From Brevundimonas sp. UBA7664 (GTDB lineage: Bacteria; Pseudomonadota; Alphaproteobacteria; Caulobacterales; Caulobacteraceae), in the NCBI RefSeq assembly GCF_002483305.1, contig NZ_DLHQ01000050.1, forward strand, positions 18,711 through 82,710: 64,000 nucleotides of DNA, read 5' to 3'. Shown here in pieces: positions 6,811 through 64,000 of this stretch; positions within the stretch are counted from its first letter, which is position 1, and the number at the start of each line of letters is the position of its first letter. Under the pieces are notes generated by a model. That model ran no database searches. It saw nothing but the letters and a program-made list of their open reading frames with translations, and was not told the origin of the DNA. A program made the translations under genes and the position numbers.

Positions 6811-9069
6811 ATGCGCAACAAACTCCTCGCCTCCACCCTGTTCCTCGCGGCCCTGTCGCCGTTCACCGCCGTGATGGCGCAAACCGCGGACCCGGCGGTC
6901 CTGACACCCGAACGGGTGTTCGCCAATCCGTCGCTGGCCGGACCGGTGGCGCGGGGCGTCAGCCTGTCGCCGGACGGCGAGCTGGTCGCCTTCCTGCGCT
7001 CGCGCGAGGACGACGTCGATGTGCTGGACCTGTGGGCCGCGCCGACCGGTGAGGGCGAGCCGTTCAAGCTGATCGACGCGCGGGCCCTGGTCCCCGACGC
7101 CGGCGAACTGTCCGAGGCCGAGAAGGCCCGACGCGAGCGGATGCGGATCAGCCAGCGCGGCGTGGTCGAATATTCGTGGGACCAACAGGGCCGCTACATC
7201 CTGGCCCCGCTGGAGGGCGACATCTTCCTGGCCAGCCGCGAGGGCGGGGCGGTGCGCCGCCTGACCGAGACCCCGGCCGACGAGATCGACGCCAAGGTCT
7301 CGCCTCAGGGCAATTTCGTCTCCTTCGTGCGCGACCAGGACCTGGTCGTGCTGGACCTGAACGGCGACCGCGAGACCGCGGTCACCACCGACGGCGAGGG
7401 GCTGATCACCTGGGCCACGGCCGAGTTCATCGCCCAGGAAGAGATGGACCGGGACACCGGCTACTGGTGGAGCCCGGACGAGCGCTACATCGCCCTGCAG
7501 CGCACGGACGAGAGCACGGTCGACATCGTGCCCCGTCTGGACATCACTGGCGGCGGCGCCTCCGTGGTCGAGCAGCGCTATCCGCGCGCCGGCCGCCCCA
7601 ATGCCGTGGTCGAGCTGTATGTCCACGATCGTCAGGGCGGCGAGCGGGTCAAGGTCGACCTGGGCTCGAATCCCGACATCTACCTGGCCCGCGTGAACTG
7701 GTCGGCGGACGGCCGCACCCTCTATGTCCAGCGCCAGTCGCGCGACCAGAAGACCCTGGACCTGCTCAGCGTCGATCCGGCCACGGGCGCGTCACGCGTG
7801 ATCGTGACCCAGCGGTCCGACGCCTGGGTGTCGCTGAACAATGACTTCCGCGCCCTCGAGAATGGCGACTTCATCTGGGCCTCGGAAGAGAGCGGGTGGA
7901 AGCATCTATATCTGTACAATCGCGACGGCCGCCGGCTGCGCGCGATCACGAGCGGCGAGTGGCCGGTCAAGTCGCTGGACGGGGTCAACCAGCAGACCGG
8001 CGAGGTCTTCTTCACCGCCTCGATGCGCGACGGCCGCGAGCTGCCGATCGAACAGCAGATGTTCCGCGCCAGCCTGCGCCGGACCGTGACGCCGACGCCG
8101 GTGACGCCCGCCGGCGGCTGGTGGTCGGCCTCGATGAACCGCACGGGCACGGCCTATGTCGGCAACTACACCGACATGGATACGCCGGCGCAGTCGGGCC
8201 TCTATCGCGCCGACGGGACCTTCGTGCGCTGGATCGAGGAGAACCGGCTGGACGCCGACCATCCGATGTATCCCTACGTCTCCCGGCGTGGCGAGACGAC
8301 CTTCGGCACGCTGGAAAGCCATGGCGAGACCCTGGTCTGGCAGATGACCACGCCGCCGGGCTTCGATCCGTCGAGACAGTATCCGGTGGTCATGCAGGTG
8401 TATGGCGGGCCGGGCGGCGGCGGGGTCAAGAAGGGCTGGCAGTCATCGACCAGCCAGCTGCTGACCGAGGCCGGCTATATCGTCTTCCGCCTCGACAACC
8501 GCGGCGAGGGCCTGCGCTCGGCGGCGTTCAAACAGGCGCTGTATCTGAAGATGGGTCAGCCCGAGATCGAGGATCAGGTGCTGGCGGCGAACTATCTGCG
8601 GTCGCTGCCCTATGTCGCCGACGACCGCATCGCCATGATGGGCTGGTCCTATGGCGGCTTCATGAGCCTGATGGCCCTGACCGAGCCGGACATGGGCCTG
8701 GCCTCGGCCATCGTCGGCGCGCCGCCGACCGAGTGGAGCCTGTACGACACCCACTACACCGAACGCTTCATGTCGACGCCCGAGGCGAACGTCGCAGGCT
8801 ACGCCGCCTCGGACGCCATTCCGCGGCTGCCGAACCTGACCGGGCGGATGCTGCTGCTGCACGGCATGGCCGACGACAACGTCATCCTCGAGAACACCAC
8901 GCGGGTGATGGACGCCATGCAAGCGTCGTCCATCCCGTTCGAACTGATGCTCTTCCCCGGCCAGCGCCACGGCGTGCGGGGCAATGAAAGGCAGCTGATG
9001 CAATGGCGGACGTATCTGGACTTCCTCGATCGCACGATCGGGACTCGAGCGCCGGCAGCACAGGACTGA
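6811..9069 (+). CDS. S9 family dipeptidyl peptidase IV-like exported peptidase
   Basis: Signal peptide, DPPIV N-terminal propeller (EEMDRDTGYWWSPD), nucleophile GWSYGG, HGMADDNV, and catalytic His in GQRHG. Confidence 0.93.
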   Translation: MRNKLLASTLFLAALSPFTAVMAQTADPAVLTPERVFANPSLAGPVARGVSLSPDGELVAFLRSREDDVDVLDLWAAPTGEGEPFKLIDARALVPDAGELSEAEKARRERMRISQRGVVEYSWDQQGRYILAPLEGDIFLASREGGAVRRLTETPADEIDAKVSPQGNFVSFVRDQDLVVLDLNGDRETAVTTDGEGLITWATAEFIAQEEMDRDTGYWWSPDERYIALQRTDESTVDIVPRLDITGGGASVVEQRYPRAGRPNAVVELYVHDRQGGERVKVDLGSNPDIYLARVNWSADGRTLYVQRQSRDQKTLDLLSVDPATGASRVIVTQRSDAWVSLNNDFRALENGDFIWASEESGWKHLYLYNRDGRRLRAITSGEWPVKSLDGVNQQTGEVFFTASMRDGRELPIEQQMFRASLRRTVTPTPVTPAGGWWSASMNRTGTAYVGNYTDMDTPAQSGLYRADGTFVRWIEENRLDADHPMYPYVSRRGETTFGTLESHGETLVWQMTTPPGFDPSRQYPVVMQVYGGPGGGGVKKGWQSSTSQLLTEAGYIVFRLDNRGEGLRSAAFKQALYLKMGQPEIEDQVLAANYLRSLPYVADDRIAMMGWSYGGFMSLMALTEPDMGLASAIVGAPPTEWSLYDTHYTERFMSTPEANVAGYAASDAIPRLPNLTGRMLLLHGMADDNVILENTTRVMDAMQASSIPFELMLFPGQRHGVRGNERQLMQWRTYLDFLDRTIGTRAPAAQD

Positions 9070-46118: not shown

Positions 46119-46153
46119 GCGGCTTTCGACTGGCCGGCGTTGACCTGTCAGCA
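46119..46153 (+). repeat. IS6-like right-end sequence (copy 1 of a direct repeat)
   Basis: GCGGCTTTCGACTGGCCGGCGTTGACCTGTCAGCA is 30/35 identical to 60376-60410, which follows an IS6 transposase remnant. Confidence 0.6.
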
Positions 46154-52876: not shown

Positions 52877-53764
52877 ATGTCGCCTCCGGATCTGAACCTG
52901 TTGATCACCCTCGACGCCCTGTTGACCGAGGGCAGCGTCGCCGGCGCCGCCCGGAGGCTGCGTCTCAGCCCCTCGGCCATGAGCCGCGCGTTGTCCCGCC
53001 TGCGCCAGACCACCGGCGACCCGCTCCTCGTCAGGGCCGGCCGCGGCCTGGTCCCGACGCCCAGGGCGATCGAGCTGAGGGACCGGGTCCGCCAGATCGT
53101 TGATGAGGCAGGGGCGGTGCTGCGTCCTGACGACCACCTCGACCTCGCGACGCTGATCCGCACCTACACCGTCAGGACCAGCGACGGATTTGTGGAGAAT
53201 TTTGGCCCTCGCCTGCTCGCCATGATCGCCGCGGAAGCCCCGGGGGTCCGCCTGTTCTTCCTCCAGAAGACAGACAAGGACAGCACCCCTTTACGCGACG
53301 GGCGCGTCGACCTCGAGACCGGCGTCATCGAGGAGACTACAGGCCCGGAAGTGCGCAGCCAGGCCCTTTTCCGGGACAGGCTGGTCGGCGTTGTACGGAA
53401 GGAACATCCGCTCAGCCGCGCGGCCGTCACGGCCACCGGGTATCTGAAAGCCTCCCACGTTGTGGTGTCCCGCAACGGTCTGGAGGAAAGCGCCGTCGAC
53501 AACCCCTTCCTGCCGCCGGGTACGCAGCGGGCGGTGGCTACGATCGTCAGCGGCTTCTCCGCGGCCCTGTCGCTGGTCCGGGCGTCGGACCTCGTGGCCA
53601 CAGTTCCGGACCGGCATACCCGCAACCTGCGTGAAGGCCTGTTCAGCTTCTCCCTTCCGCTGGATTCTCAGGCTTTCACGGTTTCGATGCTGTGGCACCC
53701 GCGAATGGACGCCGATCCCGCTCACCGCTGGCTACGGGGCTGTGTTCGAAAAGTCTGCGCCTGA
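52877..53764 (+). CDS. LysR family transcriptional regulator
   Basis: DLNLLITLDALLTEGSVAGAARRLRLSPSAMSRALSRLR...DPAHRWLR. Confidence 0.93.
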   Translation: MSPPDLNLLITLDALLTEGSVAGAARRLRLSPSAMSRALSRLRQTTGDPLLVRAGRGLVPTPRAIELRDRVRQIVDEAGAVLRPDDHLDLATLIRTYTVRTSDGFVENFGPRLLAMIAAEAPGVRLFFLQKTDKDSTPLRDGRVDLETGVIEETTGPEVRSQALFRDRLVGVVRKEHPLSRAAVTATGYLKASHVVVSRNGLEESAVDNPFLPPGTQRAVATIVSGFSAALSLVRASDLVATVPDRHTRNLREGLFSFSLPLDSQAFTVSMLWHPRMDADPAHRWLRGCVRKVCA

Positions 53765-53903
53765 ACAACCACCCGCACCGGCCGCGCTTCACGGCCATCA
53801 CCCAATGGTCGTCATCCCAACGCCGCGCCAGCTGCGGATATCGGGTCGCCAGCCTGGGACGAGCTCTCCGTGCGCGTCCAGGGGTGGGCGGTCTCCGGTC
53901 CCG

Positions 53904-54464
53904 CTATTTCAGGAAAACGAGCTCGAACAGGAAGGCGCCGAAGGTGCCGACCAGACCGGCCAGGAACGCGGCATAGGCGAACGAGAGATAGCGATATTTC
54001 TTGAACTGCAGCACCCGCCCGTTCTGGTAGAGATCGCGCGCCATGACCCTGTATGTCGCCTCTTCGGATCGGAGGGTGTCGATGATGTGGTCGATATAGT
54101 CGTCTTCCGGAATGCCGGAGAAGGCGCCGAAGAAGACCACATTGGTGTTCGGCCCGATCGTCGCGGGCGGCTTCATGATCTTCGGGCGCAGGGCCAGGAC
54201 CGAGAAGAGGGTCGCAAGAAACGAGAACGAAGCGAGGATCAGCAGGGGCACGGTGGCCCGGCTGGATGTGATCTCGTTGATGGCGAGGGTGAAGACCACG
54301 AAGGTCGCCCCCATCAGGATCGAGGCCTTGCTGTCGGCCATCTCCGACAGGGCGATATGGCCCGACTGGGCCGTGACGAGGAGGTTGTGGACCTCCTTGG
54401 GGAACTCGTAGTCGGGATGCCCGACGGGCGGGCGCGTGGAGACGGCGGACTTTTCCCTGGGCAT
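53904..54464 (-). CDS. Pycsar effector family (DUF5706/PycTM-like) membrane protein
   Basis: MADSKASILMG (ADxKA), two TM helices, LRP, NVVFFGAF, LYQNGRVLQFKKYRYLSFAY, then a C-terminal TM. GAGG RBS and an in-frame upstream stop fix the start. Confidence 0.8.
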   Translation of the reverse strand: MPREKSAVSTRPPVGHPDYEFPKEVHNLLVTAQSGHIALSEMADSKASILMGATFVVFTLAINEITSSRATVPLLILASFSFLATLFSVLALRPKIMKPPATIGPNTNVVFFGAFSGIPEDDYIDHIIDTLRSEEATYRVMARDLYQNGRVLQFKKYRYLSFAYAAFLAGLVGTFGAFLFELVFLK

Positions 54465-54616
54465 CGGCCGAACCTCGGGCAGCGGTTATCCTGAAGCGAC
54501 CGGCCCGGATACCCGAAGCGGTCTCCATGACGACCTTAGACGCGAACGCGGCCGGTTCACAACGCAGGTGGCCCCGACCCTGCTCCCGGGGCTGGAGAGC
54601 GTGGTCGGAGCTCGCC

Positions 54617-55432
54617 CTATTGGGCCCGGATTCGGCCGGTCCTGGCGTCCAGCGTGGCCAGAACGCGATGCTCGCCCGCCGTTCCGAAATGGCTGGTCAA
54701 CGGGCCGCCCGTCCACAGGTGCAAGGCGAAGCCCGGATCCTCCTCGACGATTCGCGGCCGATCGCGATCCGTCCCGCGCGACTCGTCCTCGAGGTCCAGC
54801 ACGACCTGCGGCGCGCAGGGCGGCGCGACGATCAGGGGGTGACCCGCGAACTGGGTGACGAGCGGACGGTGGAGATGCCCGGCGATCAGTCCGACGACCT
54901 GTGGCCGGGCCGCCAGCGCCGCCGCGAGACGTTCCGACCAGACGCCGTCGACGCCGACGTCCATCCAGGCGATCCCTGATTTCACGGGCGGATGGTGGAG
55001 GGCGATCAGCGTCGGCGTATCGGGCCGCGCCTCCAGGCGTGTGGTCAGCCACGCCGCGCGCCGATCGCAGAAGGCTCCGCCATGGCGGCCGGTCTCCACC
55101 GTGTCCAGCACCAGGATACGAAGGCCTCCGGACTGGGCCTCGTACTGGACGAAGCCGTCGCCATCGGGCTCCACGCCCAACCCTTCGATGAAGACCTCGC
55201 GCAGGTCGTGATTGCCCATCACCGGCAGGATCGGGGCCGAAAGGGGGGCGAGAAGATCCTTCAGCCGACGGTAGCAGGATGCGTCGCCACCCTCCGTCAG
55301 ATCACCGGTGGCCAGCACCACATCCGGGCCGATCTCCACAAGCCGGGCCACCACCGTGCGCAGACGCGCCACATTGAGCTCAGAGACTGCTCTCCCGCCG
55401 ATATGCAGATCCGTGATCTGAGCGATCAGCAT
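54617..55432 (-). CDS. CpdA/Icc-like metallophosphoesterase (cyclic nucleotide phosphodiesterase)
   Basis: MLIAQITDLHI, TGDLTE, GNHD, HHPP, GHLH calcineurin-like motifs. Confidence 0.88.
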   Translation of the reverse strand: MLIAQITDLHIGGRAVSELNVARLRTVVARLVEIGPDVVLATGDLTEGGDASCYRRLKDLLAPLSAPILPVMGNHDLREVFIEGLGVEPDGDGFVQYEAQSGGLRILVLDTVETGRHGGAFCDRRAAWLTTRLEARPDTPTLIALHHPPVKSGIAWMDVGVDGVWSERLAAALAARPQVVGLIAGHLHRPLVTQFAGHPLIVAPPCAPQVVLDLEDESRGTDRDRPRIVEEDPGFALHLWTGGPLTSHFGTAGEHRVLATLDARTGRIRAQ

Positions 55433-55618
55433 CGTCGCGAAGTCCCGTCCATGGCGCGCCGAGGTCCTTGATGTCAGAAGCGCCGCGGCCAAGCTAGGCC
55501 CCGCGCGCTATTGGGCTGTCCAACCCCGCCATGGCTGCATTAGGCTGGCCACGTCGTCGCTGCTTGGCTTGCGACTGGAAAGCGTGACCGCCGGACCGGG
55601 CAAGCAGCTGGAGCGACC

Positions 55619-57859
55619 ATGTCTATCAGGGCGGCGCTGGGGAAGTGGCGGCACGGCGTATCGCCGCCGATGCTCGGCATAGCGGCGCTGTTCGCAATCA
55701 CCATCCTGCAGGTGATCGGCGTCCCCATCGCGGACCGCATCGGCCTGGCCGTCTTCGACGCGTATCAGCGCGCCGCGCCGAGACCCTATGAGGACGCGCC
55801 GGTCCGTATCGTCGACATCGACGACGAGTCCATCCGGCGCCTGGGTCAATGGCCGTGGCCCCGCGAAGAGATTGCGGTCCTGACCGACCGGCTGACCGAG
55901 GCGGGGGCCGCCGTCATCGCCTACGACATCGTCTTCTCCGAACCTGACCGGACAGCCCCGGGCCGCCTCGCGGAACGGCTGCGCACGAGCGGCGACCGCG
56001 AGGCGGCCGCCGTCATCGCCCGCCTGCCTGACCCCGATGAAACCCTGGCGCGCTCCCTGGAGGCGTCGCCGGCGGTGCTGGGCTATTTCCTGACCCATGA
56101 CGGTCACGCGCAGGCGCCGTCGCCCAAGGCCGGAATCGCGATCGCGGGCTCTTCGCCGACGAGCGTACCCGCCTTCTCCCATGCCATCATGCCCTTGCCG
56201 GGACTGTTGGAAAGCGCGTCGGGCGCGGGGTTTGTCAGCACCATCGGCGACGCTGACGGCATTGTGCGGCGCGCCCCCCTGATCGCGCGTCAGGGCGATG
56301 AATTCGTACCCAGCCTTTCGCTCGAATCCCTTCGTCTGGCGCAACAGGCCGGTTCCATCATGGTCAGAACGAACAACGCCAGCGGCCAGCGCGGAGGGGA
56401 TGGCGGGGACGTGGTGGCGGTACGGGTCGGACAGTTCGAGATCCCGACCACGGCCCAGGGTGAGATGTGGCTGCGCTTCACGGGCCCCCAGCCCGCTCGC
56501 GTGGTGCCGGCCTGGCGCGTGATGGAGGCCCGGATGACGCCGGCGGAGCTTGAAGCCGCCTTCGCGGGCCGGATCGTCTTCGTCGGAGCGGGGGCAATCG
56601 GACTGCGCGACCTGGTGGCGACGCCGATCGAGGAGCGCACCCCGGGCGTCACCGTCCATGCCCAGGTCGTGGAGCAGGCGATCCTCGGCCGCTTCCTGGT
56701 TCGGCCCGACTGGGCTCTCGGGCTCGAGCGGGCCCTGATGGTGTTGGCGGGCCTTGCCCTGGCGCTCGCCCTGCCCTGGATCGGCGCCCGATGGAGCGCT
56801 GTGGCGGGTCTGGTCGCGGTCGCCGCCATGATCGGGCTGAGCTGGTCGGCCTTTCGCGAGATGGATTTCCTCGTCGATCCGACCTGGCCGATCATGGGCC
56901 TGGTCGCCGTCTACGGGGTGGTGACCTTCGCCACCTATTTCCGCGAGGAGCGGCGGCGGGCCTTCATTCACGGAGCGTTCGGTCGGTACCTGACGCCGGA
57001 GATGGTCCGACGCATAGCCGCGGATCCCGGCGCTCTCGAACTGGGCGGGCAGGAACGCGAGATGACCGTGCTCTTCTGCGACATCCGCGGCTTCTCGCGT
57101 ATCGCGGAGCAGATGACGCCGCAGGCGACCATCCGCTTCCTGATCGCCTTCCTGACCCCGATGTGCGACCTCCTGCTCGAACGGAAGGCCACCATCGACA
57201 AGTTCATCGGGGACGCCATCCTCGCCTTCTGGAACGCCCCGCTCGACGATCCGGACCAGCACGTTAACGCCGCGCGGGGCGCCCTGGGCATGGTGGCCGC
57301 GCTCAAGGTGCTCAACGAGACCATGCCGGGGCGCTCCGTCGACCCGTGGCCGGGCGAGGTGAAGATCGGGATCGGCATGAGCACCGGTCCCTGCTGCGTC
57401 GGCAACATGGGCGCCGCCCGGCGGCTGTCCTATTCGCTGATCGGGGACACGGTGAACCTCGCGTCCCGGATCGAGGGCCTGACCAAGACCTACGGTGTTC
57501 CGATCATGATAGGCGAGGCCCTGCACCGGTCCATTCCGACCTTCGCGACGCTGGAGATAGACCGGGTGAAGGTCCTCGGCCGCGACGCGCCTGAGACCTT
57601 GTACGCCCTGCTGGGTGACGAGAGCCTCGCCGGGGATAATGACTACATGGCTTTCGCAGAAGGCCATGCGGCGCTGCTCGACGACTACCGCGCCCGGAAC
57701 TGGCGCGCGGCCCTGCGGCGGATCAAGCAACTGGCGGCGGCCGCGGAGCGGTTCGGGGTGGGGGAGACCTACGCCCTGATCGCCGCGCGTATCGCCGCAT
57801 TCAGGAAAACCGATCCTGGCCCCCAGTGGGACGGGGTGTTCCTGGCGACTGAGAAGTAG
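55619..57859 (+). CDS. CHASE2-domain class III adenylate/guanylate cyclase
   Basis: N-terminal TM; CHASE2 (IVDIDDESIRRLGQWPWPR, IAYDIVFSEPDR, DADGIVRR, PGVTVHAQ); three TMs; cyclase LFCDIRGFS, IDKFIGDA, VGNMG...YSLIGDTVNLASRIEG. Confidence 0.93.
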   Translation: MSIRAALGKWRHGVSPPMLGIAALFAITILQVIGVPIADRIGLAVFDAYQRAAPRPYEDAPVRIVDIDDESIRRLGQWPWPREEIAVLTDRLTEAGAAVIAYDIVFSEPDRTAPGRLAERLRTSGDREAAAVIARLPDPDETLARSLEASPAVLGYFLTHDGHAQAPSPKAGIAIAGSSPTSVPAFSHAIMPLPGLLESASGAGFVSTIGDADGIVRRAPLIARQGDEFVPSLSLESLRLAQQAGSIMVRTNNASGQRGGDGGDVVAVRVGQFEIPTTAQGEMWLRFTGPQPARVVPAWRVMEARMTPAELEAAFAGRIVFVGAGAIGLRDLVATPIEERTPGVTVHAQVVEQAILGRFLVRPDWALGLERALMVLAGLALALALPWIGARWSAVAGLVAVAAMIGLSWSAFREMDFLVDPTWPIMGLVAVYGVVTFATYFREERRRAFIHGAFGRYLTPEMVRRIAADPGALELGGQEREMTVLFCDIRGFSRIAEQMTPQATIRFLIAFLTPMCDLLLERKATIDKFIGDAILAFWNAPLDDPDQHVNAARGALGMVAALKVLNETMPGRSVDPWPGEVKIGIGMSTGPCCVGNMGAARRLSYSLIGDTVNLASRIEGLTKTYGVPIMIGEALHRSIPTFATLEIDRVKVLGRDAPETLYALLGDESLAGDNDYMAFAEGHAALLDDYRARNWRAALRRIKQLAAAAERFGVGETYALIAARIAAFRKTDPGPQWDGVFLATEK

Positions 57860-57865
57860 CGTGGC

Positions 57866-58684
57866 CTAGGGGGTGCCAGGCGATTGCCCATATCGCCCGC
57901 GCTCGCCGAATTCCTCGTGGATCAGAGGACTGACGATCAGGGGATTCAGCTCCGGCGCCGTCGGGCCGCGCCGCGGATCGCCGAGCAGGGCGGCCAGTTC
58001 GGCAAGGCCGTGGTCCGAGATCAGGAAGGGTCCGATCGGGGCCTGGCCCGTCGCCGGCACGAAGACCGCGTATCCGACAGACTCCACCGGCACCGTGACG
58101 CCCCCCGACGTGACGTCGATAGCGCCCGCCGGCTCGTCCGGCGCGCCGCCCGGGCCGCGCAGCAGGATCAGCGAGGCGCTTTCGGGATCGGATCCTGTCA
58201 CGCCCGGCACGCCGAGTTCGAAGCGGGCGATGTTGATGGCGTCCTCGCCGACGACCCCCTCGACGATGGTGCCGCGAACGCCGATCGCCGCCGCCGGCGT
58301 GCGGATGGCGGTCCCGCCCGGCGTGGCCCGGGTGGGCCTGCCCGACATGAACCGGAACGAGCCCCTCGCGACCTCGGCTCCCACGGCGCTGGCGGATCGG
58401 TCGGGGTCGTACACGAACCGGTCGATCACCAGTCGGGCGTTGGCGCCGACCTGGAAGCTGGTGCCGTCCCGCAGCAGGATCTGCACGTGACTGGCGCGGC
58501 CGGTGTTGACCGGATTGCCCAGCGATACGCGTTCGCGAACGCGCGCCTGGTGAATTTGCGGCTCCGCCTGGGTGGCCATGCGCACGTCGTTGACGACGAC
58601 CGCGTTGGCGCCGACGGTCTGGGCGACCGCAGGCGTTCCCACGCCCACCAGCGCAAGCGCGAGGCAGGTTCCGATGCGGGTCAT
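57866..58684 (-). CDS. Exported FecR-domain protein
   Basis: Signal peptide; VNTGRASHVQILLRDGTSFQVGANARLVIDRFVYDP...GSFRFMSG...TPAAAIGVRGT; no cytoplasmic anti-sigma segment. Confidence 0.85.
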   Translation of the reverse strand: MTRIGTCLALALVGVGTPAVAQTVGANAVVVNDVRMATQAEPQIHQARVRERVSLGNPVNTGRASHVQILLRDGTSFQVGANARLVIDRFVYDPDRSASAVGAEVARGSFRFMSGRPTRATPGGTAIRTPAAAIGVRGTIVEGVVGEDAINIARFELGVPGVTGSDPESASLILLRGPGGAPDEPAGAIDVTSGGVTVPVESVGYAVFVPATGQAPIGPFLISDHGLAELAALLGDPRRGPTAPELNPLIVSPLIHEEFGERGRYGQSPGTP

Positions 58685-59961
58685 TGCGGACTCCCTGACC
58701 GTCCAAACCGGTAGACCATGCGCACCTCAGCGCCGAAGCTGTTGTGATCGTGCAGCAGGCTGGCGCCGTCGTACCAGCGCGCGGAGTGGCTGGCGGCGGC
58801 CTCCAGGAACATACCGTGGCGATCGAGCGGCACGCCGACCACTGCCCGCACATAGGCCCGTATCTCGGTTGCACCGCCCCCCAGGGCGCCCTCGCGAAAG
58901 TCGATATATCTCAGCATGGCGGAACCGCCGATGTAGGCGCCATTGTCGGAGATGGGCGTTTGCGTGGCCGCGAACACCCGGCCGCCGAAGTAGCCCAGAT
59001 CCGTCTGTTCGGCCTCCTTCGCCTCCACCGCGATGCCCGCGGTCCAGGCGCGATCGGCTCCCGATATGTCGCGATAGCTGAGCATGACGTCGTAGCGCAT
59101 GCCGTCCCGGAGCGAGGCTGCGGCCGGCCCCAGATAGTCCTGATCGACCGCCTCGAGCCTGACGGTCCAGCGCCCGGTCGGGCTCGCGGTGTCGCCGAGT
59201 TCCGCCTGGAGCCCAAATTCGGTGACCAGTCCGTCGCCGGCCAGCCGCGCATGTCGCGCCATCAGGCCGGTCGCCAGGCGCTGATCCTCCCCCCTGAGGC
59301 GGAAGTCGTAGCCGAGCCGCGCTGAGCCGGTCAGGTAGTCCGCGTCGGGCCCGGAGATGTCCGTCCGGGTCTCGAAGGCGGCGCCGGCGTAGCCCTGGCC
59401 CGACAGACGGGATGCGAAACGCGCGTCCAGCGCGCCCGACGCCGTGATCGCCAGCCCTTCCTCGGAGGGCGCGGGGAAGCCCGGGATCTCGATCTGGGTC
59501 GTCAACGCCCCGAGCGCGTCGGTCTCGTATCCCAGGCCGAGCGTCAGGACGCCCGTGACGCCGTCGCCGCGTGTGGCGAACGGAGTCAGGGGAGCCGGAG
59601 CGCAGGCCTCGCGCGCCTCCGCCCAGCCGGTCGCGGTCGCATTGCGCACGTTCGCCAGCTGATAGGCGCCCCGGCGGTAGTCAGCGAGACGGCACAGGAC
59701 CGTCCCGTAGTAGAGCCGCACCTCGTCCGAACCGGCGTCGGGCCGCAGCAGGAGCGAACGCTCAAGCGTCGCGGCGGCTCCGGTCAGGTTCCCGGCCCCG
59801 ACCTGCCGGCGCGCCGCCGCCAAAGTTCCGGCGTCGCTTTCCGTCGCGTCGATGAGGGCGTCGACTTCTGCCTCGCCGGCTTCCTGGGCGGCGGCGGCGC
59901 CGCAGCCCAAGGCCGCCATGCCCGCGACGATGCCGACCAGACGCCAACGGACGTGTTTCAC
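58681..59961 (-). CDS. Outer-membrane protein: N-terminal TPR-like helices + beta-barrel (DUF560/Slam-like)
   Basis: Signal peptide; GAAATLERSLLLRP...VRLYYGTVLCRL TPR-like segment; alternating strands (LTLGLGYE, ARLGYDF, YDVMLSY) ending VRMVYRF. GTG 59961 fits the RBS. Confidence 0.65.
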   Translation of the reverse strand: MKHVRWRLVGIVAGMAALGCGAAAAQEAGEAEVDALIDATESDAGTLAAARRQVGAGNLTGAAATLERSLLLRPDAGSDEVRLYYGTVLCRLADYRRGAYQLANVRNATATGWAEAREACAPAPLTPFATRGDGVTGVLTLGLGYETDALGALTTQIEIPGFPAPSEEGLAITASGALDARFASRLSGQGYAGAAFETRTDISGPDADYLTGSARLGYDFRLRGEDQRLATGLMARHARLAGDGLVTEFGLQAELGDTASPTGRWTVRLEAVDQDYLGPAAASLRDGMRYDVMLSYRDISGADRAWTAGIAVEAKEAEQTDLGYFGGRVFAATQTPISDNGAYIGGSAMLRYIDFREGALGGGATEIRAYVRAVVGVPLDRHGMFLEAAASHSARWYDGASLLHDHNSFGAEVRMVYRFGRSGSPQ

Positions 59962-60072
59962 GACCAAGCCCCCTCAGGATCCTGATCGCAATCTATGTCA
60001 GTCGCTGGCGGCGTCCAGTGGTTTCGTAACATCGTTCGGTTAACCGGAATGCCCGGAAGCCATGGGCACAAT

Positions 60073-60413
60073 TTCGGCGGAACCCTCAAACGCCTCGGAT
60101 GGCTCTCGCAATCCCGCAAAAATCAGTGACATCAAGCGGCGGTGGCGGCGCTGTGAGGCAAATGCTGAAAGGTCTCCGGCAAATTCGGCGCAAGCCGCTG
60201 TCGGGGATGATCAAATCCCACCCCTTAGTCCGAAGATTTCTCACCACCCACGCGGCGATCTACAACACCTTCAACATCCAACGTCACCTGATCAGCAGAC
60301 CCCCTCTTCGCCGTTTCCGCGCCGAAGCTGCCGCGGCCTGGGCGAAGGCCGTTGCCTGATTTCAGACGGGGTAGGGCGGCGTTCGACTCGGCGGAGTTAA
60401 CCTGTCAGCAGCC
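60073..60413 (+). mobile_element. IS6-family transposase remnant with right end
   Basis: RRFLTTHAAIYNTFNIQRHLISRPPLRRFRAEAAAAW matches IS6 transposase C-termini. The upstream part is frameshifted or degenerate. It is followed by GTTAACCTGTCAGCAGCC, an IR-like end. Confidence 0.75.
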
Positions 60414-60683: not shown

Positions 60684-61667
60684 ATGCGTGACATCCTTCG
60701 TTTCTCGAGTTCGGCGATCCCGCCCGCTCGTCGATTTGAGGCCTATCGTGAACTACATACCCACCGTTCAGAAATCCTGCCGGGGCGTGAAGCGTTTAAG
60801 GCCGAGGTCGTCGCCTGGCGTCTGGGCGACATGCTGGTGTTCGACCGTCGTCTGTCAGGGGTCGTGCATTCAAGGCAGGAACGCGTCAACGGCGATGGCG
60901 TGGATCGTTTCGTGGCGACGCTGGTGCGGTCCGGGCGACTGAGCGGACAGGCGAGGACTGGTTTCGAAGTCGAGCCAGGGCAGATCATCATGCTCGACAC
61001 CCGTCGCGCGGTCATCATCGAGCATCACGCTGCGCATATCGTCACCGTCAGTGTGGCCCGCGGCGTGATCGAGGCTGCCTTCGATCGGACGGACGGTTTG
61101 CATGGCCAGATTCTGACCGCCCCTGCGAACGGCTTCCTGGCTGATTTCATGGTCATGCTGGCCGAGCGAACCGCCGACATGGCCCCTCTGAAGGTCGCTC
61201 CGGTGAGCCGCGCCTTTCTGGATATCCTGTCGACGGCGGGTAGCGTCACAGCGTCGCAGGGGCTGGAACTGAGGCGGCTGGAGCTGGCTCGCCGACGGGC
61301 TGTTGACCGCTATATCGATGACAACCTGTCGGACCGGAAACTGTCGGTCGGAATGATCAGCCGGGCCACCGGCGTGTCGCGCTCGGCACTGTATCGAATG
61401 TTCGCCGAGCAGGGGGGAGTTGGCCGCCATGTGAAGGCGCAGCGGCTGGCCGCAGTCAGGAAGGCGCTGGATAATGGCGGCACAGAGCCTCTGGCGGCTC
61501 TCGCCCATACCCTCGGTTTTGCCAGCGACAGTCAGATGAGTCGTCAGTTCAGCCTCGCCTATGACACGACGCCCGGCGCCTATCGCCGGGCCTGGGCAGA
61601 GCGCGGGGCCGATGACCCTACCCAAGGCCGCGATCAACGGGCGGCCTGGATGAGGGAATTGAACTGA
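60684..61667 (+). CDS. AraC family transcriptional regulator
   Basis: RRFEAYRE N-terminal ligand-binding domain; LSVGMISRATGVSRSALYRMF...LGFASDSQMSRQFSLAYDTTPGAYR. Confidence 0.9.
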   Translation: MRDILRFSSSAIPPARRFEAYRELHTHRSEILPGREAFKAEVVAWRLGDMLVFDRRLSGVVHSRQERVNGDGVDRFVATLVRSGRLSGQARTGFEVEPGQIIMLDTRRAVIIEHHAAHIVTVSVARGVIEAAFDRTDGLHGQILTAPANGFLADFMVMLAERTADMAPLKVAPVSRAFLDILSTAGSVTASQGLELRRLELARRRAVDRYIDDNLSDRKLSVGMISRATGVSRSALYRMFAEQGGVGRHVKAQRLAAVRKALDNGGTEPLAALAHTLGFASDSQMSRQFSLAYDTTPGAYRRAWAERGADDPTQGRDQRAAWMRELN

Positions 61668-61821: not shown

Positions 61822-62133
61822 CTGGCGGTGCATCTCGGGGGTTGGTTCATGTCGATGCGATTTTGGGAGCCTGGCGGCGGGTCATTGCCGCGAGCGCACG
61901 TCGCAACGAAACGCCGGCCTAGAACCGACCGTCACCCGTACTTCTATTGCGGGACGCAGAGCGGCGCTTTCAGCTGCATCCTCGCGCCCGCGGCAGCGGT
62001 GGGGCTGCACGCACAGGCACTCGACTAACGGCCCTGCAGATAACGGCGTGTTCGGACAACCGGCGCCGTCCGTATTTCAACGACTCCAACAGCGCCGTCA
62101 GAACGCTGTGACGCACAAACAATGGGGACTTTC

Positions 62134-64000
62134 ATGATCATCGGTACACGCGGGCTTTCCAGACTTCAGCTGCACGGTGCGCGCGCGCCGCGTTCGCGTT
62201 CGATGCTGGCGGGGCTGCTGACGGGTACGGCGCTGGGCTGTTCGTTGATGGTCGCAATGGCGACGCCCGCACTGGCCGATAACGAATGCGGTCCGGCAGG
62301 AGCCACGGTGGTGTGTCCCGCCAACACCTACAACACCGGTATCCGCTATGCGAACCTGGCCGAGGCGCTGGCGTTGAACGTCCCCGTGGGCGCGTTCGTC
62401 AACACGACGGCGAACTACACTGCAGGTATCGAGGTCCAGGGCGGCAACTTCGACGTCTCCATCTTTCAGCGCGGGCCGATCCGCACATCAGGCCTGGACG
62501 CCCCGGGCATCTACGTTGAGACCAATGCGGGGAACGTAACGATCGACGCGGATGACGTCGCGACCACAGGCGATTACTCGACGACGTCCAACTTCGGTGC
62601 CGAAGGCATCTTTGTTTACAGCAACACCGGCGATGTATCCGTCACGGCCCGCAATGTCAGCGTCGACGGGTTCGCCACCAGCGCGCTCGCGGTGGTGGTC
62701 AACAATGCGGATATTGTCTTTGACATCGACGCCATAACTTCCACGTCTACAAACTCGGCCACCGTCTTTGCGCAGACCCAGGGTTCGGGCGACGTCACCA
62801 TCACAAGCGGATCGATCGACAGCCGTAACCAGGGGATCGCTGTCTTCGGCGCGGGCGCCGGCACGGTGATCGTCACCAGCGACTCGATCAGTATCGCCAA
62901 CAGTGATGCCCAAGGCCACTTCGGCATCATCATGGGCGTCAACGCCAAGGACGTGATCGTCGATAGCGGCTCCATCAGCACGACGGGCCTTGCGGCGCGC
63001 GGGATAGGCATCACCGCAGCCAGCGTCGACATCACCAGCGACAGTATCGTCACCACCGGCGGGCCGACGACGACCCGTGCCTCGGACGGCATTGCGGTGA
63101 TCGCATTGACGGGCGACGTCACCATCGACAGCGGCACAATCAGCACCAGTGGCCTGGCAGCGCGGGGCGTGGGCGCGACCGCCAATCTGGGCTCTGTCGA
63201 TATCACCAGCGGTTCGATCACCACGGCAGGCAACGGCGCCCTCGGGATCCAGGCTTTCGGGTCAACCGGGGTAACCATCGACAGCGGATCCATCTCGACC
63301 TCGGGTACGACGAACACGGGTGGCGGTATGACTCGCCAGGCCGATGCGATCTGGGTCACGGGTGGCGCAGGTGCGAACTTCTCCATCACCAGCGACAGCA
63401 TCACCACGACGGGGGTGGATGCGCGGGGTATCGTGGTCGATGACGACGGCGTGGTTGGCTATGGCGTCAGCAACGCGGCGGCCGGAACGGGCGCTCTGGT
63501 CATCGACAGTGGCGGGATCACCACCGGGGGCTTCGGGGCGCGTGGTATGGCGATCAGCCATGCGGGGGCGGTGGATATCGTCTCCGGCACGATCGCCACC
63601 GAGGGCGACAGCGCCAGCGGCATCACCCTGTTCGCCTCGGCGGACACGGTCATCAACAGCGGGACGATCACCACCGAAGGCCAGGATGCGTTCGGCATCG
63701 AGGTGCGGGGCGCGACCGGCGACGTGACCATCACGTCGGACAGCGTGACCACGCTGGGCGACTATTCGAACGGCCTGCTGGTCTTCGCCGACGATGGCGC
63801 GGTCTCGATCACCAGCGGGTCGGTTTCGACGTCGGGCGACGGCGCCACCGGCATTTCGGTGGTCACCAACAGCGGCGCAGTGACGATCGATTCCGGCTTC
63901 GTCTCGACGTCCGGCGACTACGTCTATGATGAGCGCGGCGCGGGCGAGGATCGCTTTGCCGAAGGCATCTCGGTCTTCACCGACACGGGCGCCATCTCGA
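62134..64000 (+). CDS. Large secreted repeat-rich protein (autotransporter/adhesin-like beta-helical passenger), 3' end runs off the window
   Basis: Manual translation is open from ATG 62134 to the window end. Extended signal peptide (...LLTGTALGCSLMVAMATPALA), CGPAGATVVC, then many about 22-25 aa repeats VTI(D/T)SG(S/T)I(S/T)TxGxxAxGIxV. Confidence 0.85.
   Translation, partial: MIIGTRGLSRLQLHGARAPRSRSMLAGLLTGTALGCSLMVAMATPALADNECGPAGATVVCPANTYNTGIRYANLAEALALNVPVGAFVNTTANYTAGIEVQGGNFDVSIFQRGPIRTSGLDAPGIYVETNAGNVTIDADDVATTGDYSTTSNFGAEGIFVYSNTGDVSVTARNVSVDGFATSALAVVVNNADIVFDIDAITSTSTNSATVFAQTQGSGDVTITSGSIDSRNQGIAVFGAGAGTVIVTSDSISIANSDAQGHFGIIMGVNAKDVIVDSGSISTTGLAARGIGITAASVDITSDSIVTTGGPTTTRASDGIAVIALTGDVTIDSGTISTSGLAARGVGATANLGSVDITSGSITTAGNGALGIQAFGSTGVTIDSGSISTSGTTNTGGGMTRQADAIWVTGGAGANFSITSDSITTTGVDARGIVVDDDGVVGYGVSNAAAGTGALVIDSGGITTGGFGARGMAISHAGAVDIVSGTIATEGDSASGITLFASADTVINSGTITTEGQDAFGIEVRGATGDVTITSDSVTTLGDYSNGLLVFADDGAVSITSGSVSTSGDGATGISVVTNSGAVTIDSGFVSTSGDYVYDERGAGEDRFAEGISVFTDTGAIS

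Follow-up and report, generated by a model that had tools for sequence, protein, structure and literature searches.

Introduction

As usually described, suicide effectors that respond to a nucleotide (CBASS, Pycsar, Thoeris) come without a host eraser; to our knowledge, type III CRISPR is the one exception, its ring nucleases being host enzymes that degrade cyclic oligoadenylate to limit and reset the response. In the Pycsar and Pucsar systems with transmembrane (TM) effectors, a cyclic nucleoside monophosphate (cNMP) made by a cyclase triggers the membrane effector (10.64898/2026.08.12.744502). PycTM has been reported as a cNMP-activated membrane effector, and EcPucTM, which belongs to a cGMP-producing defence system, is a hexameric channel whose cGMP-bound state was not captured (10.64898/2026.08.12.744502; PMC11224242). 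Here we describe a locus within a stretch of 64,000 nucleotides (nt) from Brevundimonas sp. UBA7664 (contig NZ_DLHQ01000050.1, positions 18,711 to 82,710 of the forward strand; in the following the window, position 1 being its first letter), in which a gene for a PycTM-family protein with three TM helices (3TM protein) stands beside a metallophosphoesterase gene, hereafter the phosphodiesterase (PDE) gene, and close to the gene of a receptor-type cyclase.

The second described system that the locus recalls comes from Sinorhizobium meliloti. Its CHASE2 cyclases react to a plant protein by way of NsrA, a beta-barrel of the outer membrane (PMC5498481, PMC13001267), and the cyaD1 locus encodes the periplasmic FecR-domain protein SMc02177 and the phosphodiesterase SpdA (PMC5498481, PMC13001267, PMC4222275). 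With a probability of about 0.6, we propose that window 53904-59967 is a horizontally acquired, self-contained cyclic-nucleotide cassette in which the cyclase, the PDE and the 3TM protein are writer, eraser and membrane reader of one circuit.

Conservation of the phosphodiesterase-3TM pair

The 3TM gene (53904..54464, minus strand, 186 amino acids, aa) was assigned by Pfam and PADLOC to PF18967, the PycTM / pJV1-SpdB3 family, and codes for a putative cNMP reader or channel. Separated from it by a gap of 152 nt (54465-54616) lies the PDE gene (54617..55432, minus strand, 271 aa), which from its Pfam and NCBIfam matches and its motifs encodes a cytoplasmic class III (calcineurin-like) metallophosphoesterase and putative cNMP phosphodiesterase. 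Beyond a divergent intergenic region of 186 nt (55433-55618), the plus strand carries the cyclase gene (55619..57859, 746 aa), in Pfam terms a fusion of a CHASE2 receptor with a class III nucleotide cyclase that is predicted to be an adenylate cyclase. The coordinates and distances given in an earlier annotation made from the letters of the window alone, the original prediction, were all correct. This annotation had also partnered the 3TM gene with the PDE gene and not directly with the cyclase, which turned out to be a conserved design.

Homologues of the 3TM protein were sampled as 80 loci from species-representative genomes and, in addition, as the closest matches in a metagenome-scale protein collection together with their contigs; neighbourhood genes were called by a GC3-based gene call and from precomputed Pfam contexts. 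The collection contained 1352 homologues, all of PF18967 among the 120 listed. In 12 loci with differing flanks and four arrangements the PDE gene adjoins the 3TM gene (the window, L021, L029, L131, L133, L136, L138, L139, L140, L141, L170 and L171). A Metallophos gene lies co-oriented upstream of the 3TM gene in L021, L131, L133, L136, L138-L141, L170 and L171, whose 3TM proteins are 66-91% identical to that of the window, and directly after it, not before, in L029. In type I (window, L021, L133, L138) the genes of an outer-membrane protein and then a FecR-domain protein converge on that of a CHASE2 cyclase, from which PDE and then 3TM run divergently. Type II (L136, L139, L140, L141, L170 and probably L171) is a series of co-oriented, overlapping genes for a giant protein (1350-2100 aa), a CHAT protease (~1030 aa, missing from L170), a CHASE2 cyclase (~665 aa), a conserved ~240-aa protein, PDE and 3TM, often with a DUF900 alpha/beta-hydrolase of ~590 aa next; here the PDE and 3TM genes overlap by 0-8 nt, and a Pfam search with the 239-aa gene of these cassettes gave no match. 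In type III (L131) a cytochrome P450 gene and the gene of a 1048-aa zinc-ribbon-cyclase-AAA_16 (STAND-like) protein are divergent from PDE and then 3TM; these partners (L131/L132 3672-6818), and not a CHASE2 cyclase, accompany the closest relative of the window's pair, with 3TM proteins 91-92% identical. Type IV (L029) has the order 3TM, PDE, CHASE2 cyclase. Genes beyond these modules differ in each case (cbb3 oxidase, hut genes, phosphoenolpyruvate carboxykinase, aldehyde dehydrogenase and others). As the pairing recurs in 12 loci with unrelated flanks, the adjacency of PDE and 3TM is far beyond chance. The only Caulobacterales record among the 80 species-representative loci, L021, is syntenic with the window.

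At the nucleotide level the window and L131 are homologous (77.6% over 1594 nt) only in window 53919-55500, which covers PDE, spacer and 3TM, and the cyclases of the two loci are unrelated in architecture. Across ten loci, pairwise identities of 3TM and PDE correlate with r = 0.79 and those of 3TM and the cyclase catalytic domain with 0.21, both values being descriptive because the pairs depend on one another. A maximum-likelihood tree of 91 3TM sequences groups every PDE-linked row in one clade with 100% SH-aLRT support, a clade that also holds eight core-locus or tandem-duplicate copies. Judged from the limits of the L131 homology, the identity correlations and the single 3TM clade, PDE and 3TM are one jointly inherited two-gene output unit beside which the cyclase is exchangeable. 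The PDE family in general is not cyclase-linked, since PDE homologues at 35-46% identity were found in 33 of 400 alphaproteobacterial genomes, with neither a CHASE2 cyclase nor a 3TM gene within 1.5 kb of any of them.

A PDE-3TM unit that docks beside different sensor cyclases points to an undescribed, self-contained cyclic-nucleotide circuit and not to a classical Pycsar operon. One may go further and suppose a mobile family of such circuits, in which a hexameric channel of the PycTM family is obligatorily paired with its own PDE as an eraser-reader unit, probably for cAMP, and served by sensor cyclases that can be exchanged for one another (CHASE2 with outer-membrane and FecR partners, CHAT-CHASE2, or STAND-like AAA_16); we offer this wider generalization tentatively and at somewhat less than even odds.

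Phosphodiesterase: family and substrate

The PDE start was placed at the ATG at 55432 (MLIAQITDLHIG), which is common to all 10 aligned homologues, their proteins beginning with MLIAQI(T/S)D.HIG; the PDE sequence has no signal peptide. The Pfam Metallophos profile matched with 65.5 bits, and among NCBIfam models SpdA was best with 121.7 bits (cut-off 400), followed by CpdA with 79.4 bits (cut-off 225), both below the equivalog level. The nearest solved structures were Rv0805 (4.6e-21) and GpdQ (4e-17). All class III PDE motifs are intact (ITDLH, TGDL, GNHD, LHHPP and AGHLH) and kept in the 10 homologues, the reference being D-Xn-GD-Xn-GNH[E/D]-Xn-H-Xn-GHXH, a pattern from which substrate specificity is not readable (PMC4222275).

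Whether the PDE acts on the product of the adjacent cyclase, as supposed in the original prediction with its built-in off-switch, is about an even bet. SpdA had once been predicted to end cAMP signalling from its cyaD1 locus, which also codes for a CHASE2 cyclase, and cleaves 2',3'-cAMP but not 3',5'-cAMP, for which a role as insulator was proposed; Rv0805 likewise favours 2',3'-cNMPs about 150-fold (PMC4222275). With SpdA as best family match and Rv0805 as nearest structure, the PDE of the window could be a 2',3'-cNMP phosphodiesterase of this kind, insulating the reader from the 2',3'-cyclic nucleotides that RNA decay yields while the signal is ended by other means. We regard such a function as unlikely, because the PDE scores far below the SpdA cut-off and the reader in S. 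meliloti is a CRP-type regulator, which is absent from the window's cassette. Moreover, the tight coupling of PDE and 3TM, overlapping genes included, equally fits a protection against the cognate activating ligand.

The 3TM protein

The 3TM protein matches Pfam PF18967 (PycTM) with 83.1 bits (cut-off 27.2) and the PADLOC PycTM models with E 9.4e-14. Its AlphaFold2 (AF2) model (mean pLDDT 80.6) has helices at residues 23-66, 72-92, 120-131 and 134-184. The first is read as an N-terminal helix that continues into TM1 and the second as TM2; a loop modelled with less confidence follows, then the short third helix, and TM3 lies inside the long fourth. The N-terminus and the segment 93-158 are predicted to be cytoplasmic by the positive-inside rule, and the same two parts are the best conserved (HPDYEFPKEVHNLL, MADSKASILMG, FFG and EE.YR.MARDLYQNG..L..KKYRYL). 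A Foldseek search of the model against the Protein Data Bank (PDB) gave no solved relative, the best E of 0.06 reflecting helical-bundle noise. The related PycTM and PucTM are membrane effectors that cNMPs activate, the latter forming a hexameric channel, and the 3TM protein is accordingly the candidate reader of the cassette.

About 70 of the 80 species-representative 3TM loci, nearly all from Sphingomonadales, share a syntenic core neighbourhood without cyclase or PDE. On one side it comprises an acyl carrier protein, a serine-palmitoyltransferase-like aminotransferase and a hybrid histidine kinase, on the other an epimerase/3beta-HSD-family gene, ProB, Obg, L27/L21, GroEL or a MATE transporter. 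This neighbourhood resembles the bacterial sphingolipid (ceramide) synthesis cluster. In the core-type loci L020, L022-L026, L169 and L172 the 3TM gene is found at about 8001-8560 of each 16-kb locus, and several Sphingomonadales genomes carry two tandem 3TM copies, the second belonging to the clade that travels with the PDE elsewhere.

The core loci, with their acyl carrier protein and aminotransferase, would suit a pair that has nothing to do with cNMP reading: the 3TM protein would then have a housekeeping role in the membrane or in lipid matters, the PDE would be a diesterase like GpdQ, to which it shows the similarity given above, with a lipid or another phosphodiester as substrate, and the cyclase would regulate something else. 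This appears quite improbable to us, as a class III cyclase is adjacent in 11 of the 11 PDE-linked loci that extend past the pair, despite changing cyclase type and flanks (the contig of L171 ends inside the PDE gene). In addition, the host genome has no other cyclase, the cassette has no obvious other reader, and the PADLOC PycTM models do recognise the 3TM protein.

Cyclase specificity

The cyclase matches the Pfam families CHASE2 (202.9 bits) and Guanylate_cyc (68.1 bits), and the metal-binding Asp residues (FCD, IGD) and the N-x3-R motif (NLASR) are present. Its base-specifying residues are Lys (DKFIGD) and Ser (YSLIGD). The corresponding residues are Glu and Gly in the guanylate cyclase Cya2 (2w01), whose engineered adenylate-cyclase form (6fht) carries Lys at the first site; the type II cassette cyclases have Lys and Thr, and the AAA_16 cyclase of L131/L132 has Ser/Glu instead of Lys/Ser. 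In class III cyclases Lys together with Asp, Thr or Ser indicates ATP as substrate, and because Lys/Ser fit this rule the product of the window's cyclase is predicted to be a purine cNMP, most likely 3',5'-cAMP. The original prediction had regarded the protein as the cyclase belonging to the PycTM-like effector; it is not a Pycsar cyclase but a CHASE2 receptor cyclase with ATP-type residues.

These residues also bear on the possibility of a canonical Pycsar anti-phage system, in which a pyrimidine cyclase and PycTM would bring about abortive infection and the PDE would be an accessory. PF18967 and the PADLOC PycTM and PycC models do match the 3TM protein and the catalytic core of the cyclase, the distribution is patchy with an insertion sequence (IS) remnant adjacent, and some sister cassettes have conflict-type partners (CHAT protease, AAA_16 STAND-like ATPase). 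However, the cyclase is a membrane receptor of 746 aa with CHASE2 and a purine-type Lys/Ser pair, in which the match to the PycC models is confined to the generic catalytic core (residues 475-639), the genes are divergent and form no two-gene operon, and the flanks are housekeeping genes and not defence islands. In a sample of 401 Pseudomonadota genomes, PF18967 was found in 26, with an adjacent PDE only in the host genome of the window; the classical Pycsar layout with an adjacent, co-oriented cyclase occurred in three, and their 3TM proteins are only distantly related to that of the window (E about 1e-5 with the 3TM hidden Markov model). A canonical Pycsar system is therefore very improbable.

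The cassette in its genome

The host genome (2.92 Mb, 99.95% complete) encodes exactly one PF00211 class III cyclase, that of the window, and a profile search of it found no class I (PF01295) and no class IV/CYTH (PF01928) cyclase. Six proteins with a cNMP_binding domain (CRP/FNR type) are encoded, none of them within the cassette, the nearest at C24:14859-15083, ~58 kb away. As no other cyclase of classes I, III or IV is present, the cassette can be taken as a complete imported circuit, which likely supplies its own writer, its own eraser and a likely reader to a genome otherwise unable to make cNMPs by these classes. For the same reason the reader belonging to this sole cyclase is most economically sought within the cassette.

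Two further genes converge on the 3' end of the cyclase gene. The first codes for a secreted FecR-domain protein (57866..58684, minus strand, 272 aa; Pfam FecR 35.8 bits), a putative periplasmic partner of the CHASE2 sensor. The second (58681..59967, minus strand), which overlaps it by 4 nt, codes for a protein of 428 aa that has a signal peptide and a C-terminus of the ...VRMVYRF type, from its sequence probably an outer-membrane barrel with a helical N-terminal part. Neither Pfam nor NCBIfam matched the 428-aa protein, and Pfam likewise gave nothing for the 441-aa outer-membrane partner. Both genes are kept with the cyclase in five other loci (L021, L133, L138, G005 and G023), and the 428-aa protein is 50% identical to its counterpart in L021.

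The 3TM gene was present in none of 36 same-genus and 24 same-order genomes, and 40 same-genus genomes gave no DNA match. Three same-genus genomes (G005, G023 and G828) have a module of their own consisting of outer-membrane protein, FecR protein, CHASE2 cyclase and PDE, without the 3TM gene, in which the cyclase is 52-55% and the PDE 44% identical to the window's proteins; the PDEs of the L021, L131 and L138 cassettes are 62-70% identical. At the right edge of the cassette lies a multicopy repeat, the IS remnant (60147..60410, plus strand), of which ~200-260 nt recur in many same-genus copies (74-87% identity, up to 7 per genome) and once more in the host genome (C6). Its last 35 nt recur directly at 46119-46153 (30/35 identical, 14,257 nt away; direct repeat D1), and the two repeats bracket the cassette and a neighbouring LysR-orf191-MFS-CPBP block. 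That the bracketed 14 kb are simply one transposon was considered and rejected, as G828 has the block (75% nucleotide identity) with nothing cassette-like beside it. Just past the IS remnant follow an AraC-family regulator gene (60684-61667) and an open-ended reading frame (62122-63999, >626 aa, no Pfam match).

Transcription signals

A consensus scan of 53600-55800 found no terminator-like and no sigma-70-like promoter site, and Rfam gave no match on 53500-56000 at E up to 1. Alignment of the PDE-3TM spacers (A3) revealed a conserved, promoter-like motif upstream of the 3TM gene (54533..54565, minus strand), GCGTTGTG-N13-14-CGCGTCTA(A/G)GGT, which can be read as a -35 element TTGTGA, a spacer of 16-17 nt and a -10 element TCTAAG; the strict consensus scan had missed it. 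Apart from this motif and the ribosome-binding site, the five spacers of types I and III (112-165 nt) are poorly conserved, with 55% identity. The type I 3TM gene may thus have its own promoter. In type II, PDE and 3TM must be co-transcribed because the two genes overlap.

Directly after the PDE stop codon a GC-rich hairpin (54571..54612, minus strand) may form a weak terminator, although its stability is not significant against shuffled sequences (z = -1.27 for 80 nt), it has no U-tract and its position is not kept in relatives; such a hairpin precedes the promoter-like motif in the window and in L138. A riboswitch or attenuator in the PDE-3TM spacer was also considered and rejected, since the hairpins of five folded loci neither beat shuffled sequences nor are conserved. 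Upstream of the PDE start, at a distance of ~40 nt, the element TTCTGACATCA (55469-55479, minus strand; alignment A4) is kept in four type I loci within a region that is otherwise unalignable and may be a regulatory or promoter element.

Proposed circuit

From these data, the following course of events can be proposed. The probable outer-membrane protein and the periplasmic FecR-domain protein would relay a signal from the envelope or from outside the cell to the cyclase's CHASE2 domain, an input step suggested by the parallel with the S. meliloti CHASE2 cyclases, the NsrA barrel and the FecR protein there. The cyclase would then make a purine cNMP, most likely 3',5'-cAMP from its specificity residues. 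A 3TM oligomer would bind the nucleotide and change membrane permeability, and the PDE would hydrolyse the nucleotide, thereby setting the activation threshold, preventing self-intoxication by a leaky cyclase and resetting the system.

Several observations weigh against this circuit. Of the characterised PDEs, SpdA is the nearest that comes from a similar locus, and it leaves 3',5'-cAMP uncleaved (PMC4222275); GpdQ, a glycerophosphodiesterase, is almost as near to the PDE as Rv0805. The promoter-like spacer motif suggests that the 3TM gene may be transcribed separately in the arrangement of the window. The AF2 model of the 3TM protein consists of helices only, with no recognisable nucleotide-binding fold. 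Finally, the nearest 3TM relatives outside the cassettes are Sphingomonadales core genes without cyclase or PDE nearby, which indicates a cyclase-independent life of the 3TM fold.

The sign of the signal could also be the reverse, as in Panoptes, where a constitutive cyclase keeps a TM effector off (PMC13712596). A tonic cyclase product would then hold the 3TM effector closed, and depletion of that product, by the PDE or by phage sponges and phosphodiesterases, would open it, which would agree with the tonic signalling suggested in the original prediction. We give such an inverted logic hardly any credence, as a PDE that is constitutively encoded alongside the effector, and in type II coupled to it in translation, would be self-toxic, and the CHASE2, CHAT and STAND sensor domains argue for synthesis activated by a stimulus.

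For the circuit of writer, eraser and activated reader, the purpose is balanced roughly evenly between conflict or defence and a physiological envelope response. The history of the family, the CHAT and STAND-like partners in sister cassettes and the patchy, IS-flanked distribution were counted for defence; the CHASE2/FecR precedent, the housekeeping flanks and the core-gene 3TM relatives were counted for a physiological response. If the circuit is as proposed, cNMP-gated membrane effectors can run with a built-in threshold and reset, and PycTM-family proteins can be driven by envelope-sensing receptor cyclases and not by cytoplasmic phage sensors. Signalling of the Pycsar/Pucsar type would thereby take in membrane responses, immune or physiological, that are triggered at the envelope, subject to a threshold and reversible, and it would become clear how a toxic cNMP-gated effector is made safe. 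Independent of this, matches to PF18967, to 'Pycsar effector' or of the PADLOC type are without context not evidence of defence systems, most Sphingomonadales members of PF18967 being syntenic core genes. With five genes on 6 kb in a genome without other cyclase, the cassette offers a clean experimental system.

Comparison with known systems

A literature search that did not extend to Burroughs et al. 2015 (Nucleic Acids Research) found nothing linking Pycsar-family effectors to CHASE2 cyclases or to a host metallophosphoesterase, and the Pucsar preprint does not mention a phosphodiesterase (10.64898/2026.08.12.744502). Panoptes (OptS/OptE) shares with the cassette a nucleotide cyclase, a TM effector and the idea of tonic signalling (PMC13712596), but has an mCpol cyclase, cyclic dinucleotides, an effector with two TM helices, an inhibitory ligand logic and no PDE. 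Phosphoesterases are described as phage counter-defences, namely the anti-Pycsar protein Apyc1 (PMC13712596) and the metallophosphoesterase gp48 (PMC12287305); in contrast to these phage-encoded proteins, the PDE of the window is host-encoded and genetically coupled to the effector. The likeness to the ring nucleases of type III CRISPR is that an eraser of the activating nucleotide is encoded together with a nucleotide-activated toxic effector, and it is conceptual only, as proteins and ligands are unrelated.

On the input side the cassette resembles the CyaD1/CyaD2/CyaK-NsrA-Clr-SpdA system of S. meliloti, with which it shares an alphaproteobacterial CHASE2 receptor fused to a class III cyclase and, at the same locus, a class III PDE gene; its FecR-domain gene and the gene of the probable outer-membrane barrel would be candidate counterparts of the partner genes there. 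The output there is the CRP-type Clr, whereas the cassette has no cNMP_binding gene and carries the 3TM protein beside the PDE instead, and its PDE scores far below the SpdA cut-off.

To the Pycsar and Pucsar TM systems the locus is related by the Pfam family PF18967, the helical architecture with three TM segments and the class III-fold cyclase alongside. It differs from them in that a CHASE2 receptor (elsewhere a CHAT-CHASE2 or AAA_16 fusion), predicted to be ATP-specific, takes the place of the small standalone PycC or PucC, that a metallophosphoesterase is the obligatory partner of the effector, with PDE and 3TM divergent from the cyclase, and that the 3TM clade of the window is distant from the cyclase-adjacent PF18967 genes. 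Of the three hallmarks by which Pycsar can be tested here, the locus thus has the effector, of the PycTM (PF18967) type. Its cyclase is not a small soluble PycC making cCMP or cUMP, as Lys/Ser are found as in class IIIb adenylate cyclases, the product being predicted from these residues; and instead of a two-gene cyclase-effector operon, the cyclase is divergent and the PDE lies between cyclase and effector. By cyclase type and operon layout the locus therefore falls outside Pycsar, but a mode of action like that of a Pycsar/Pucsar TM system is plausible.

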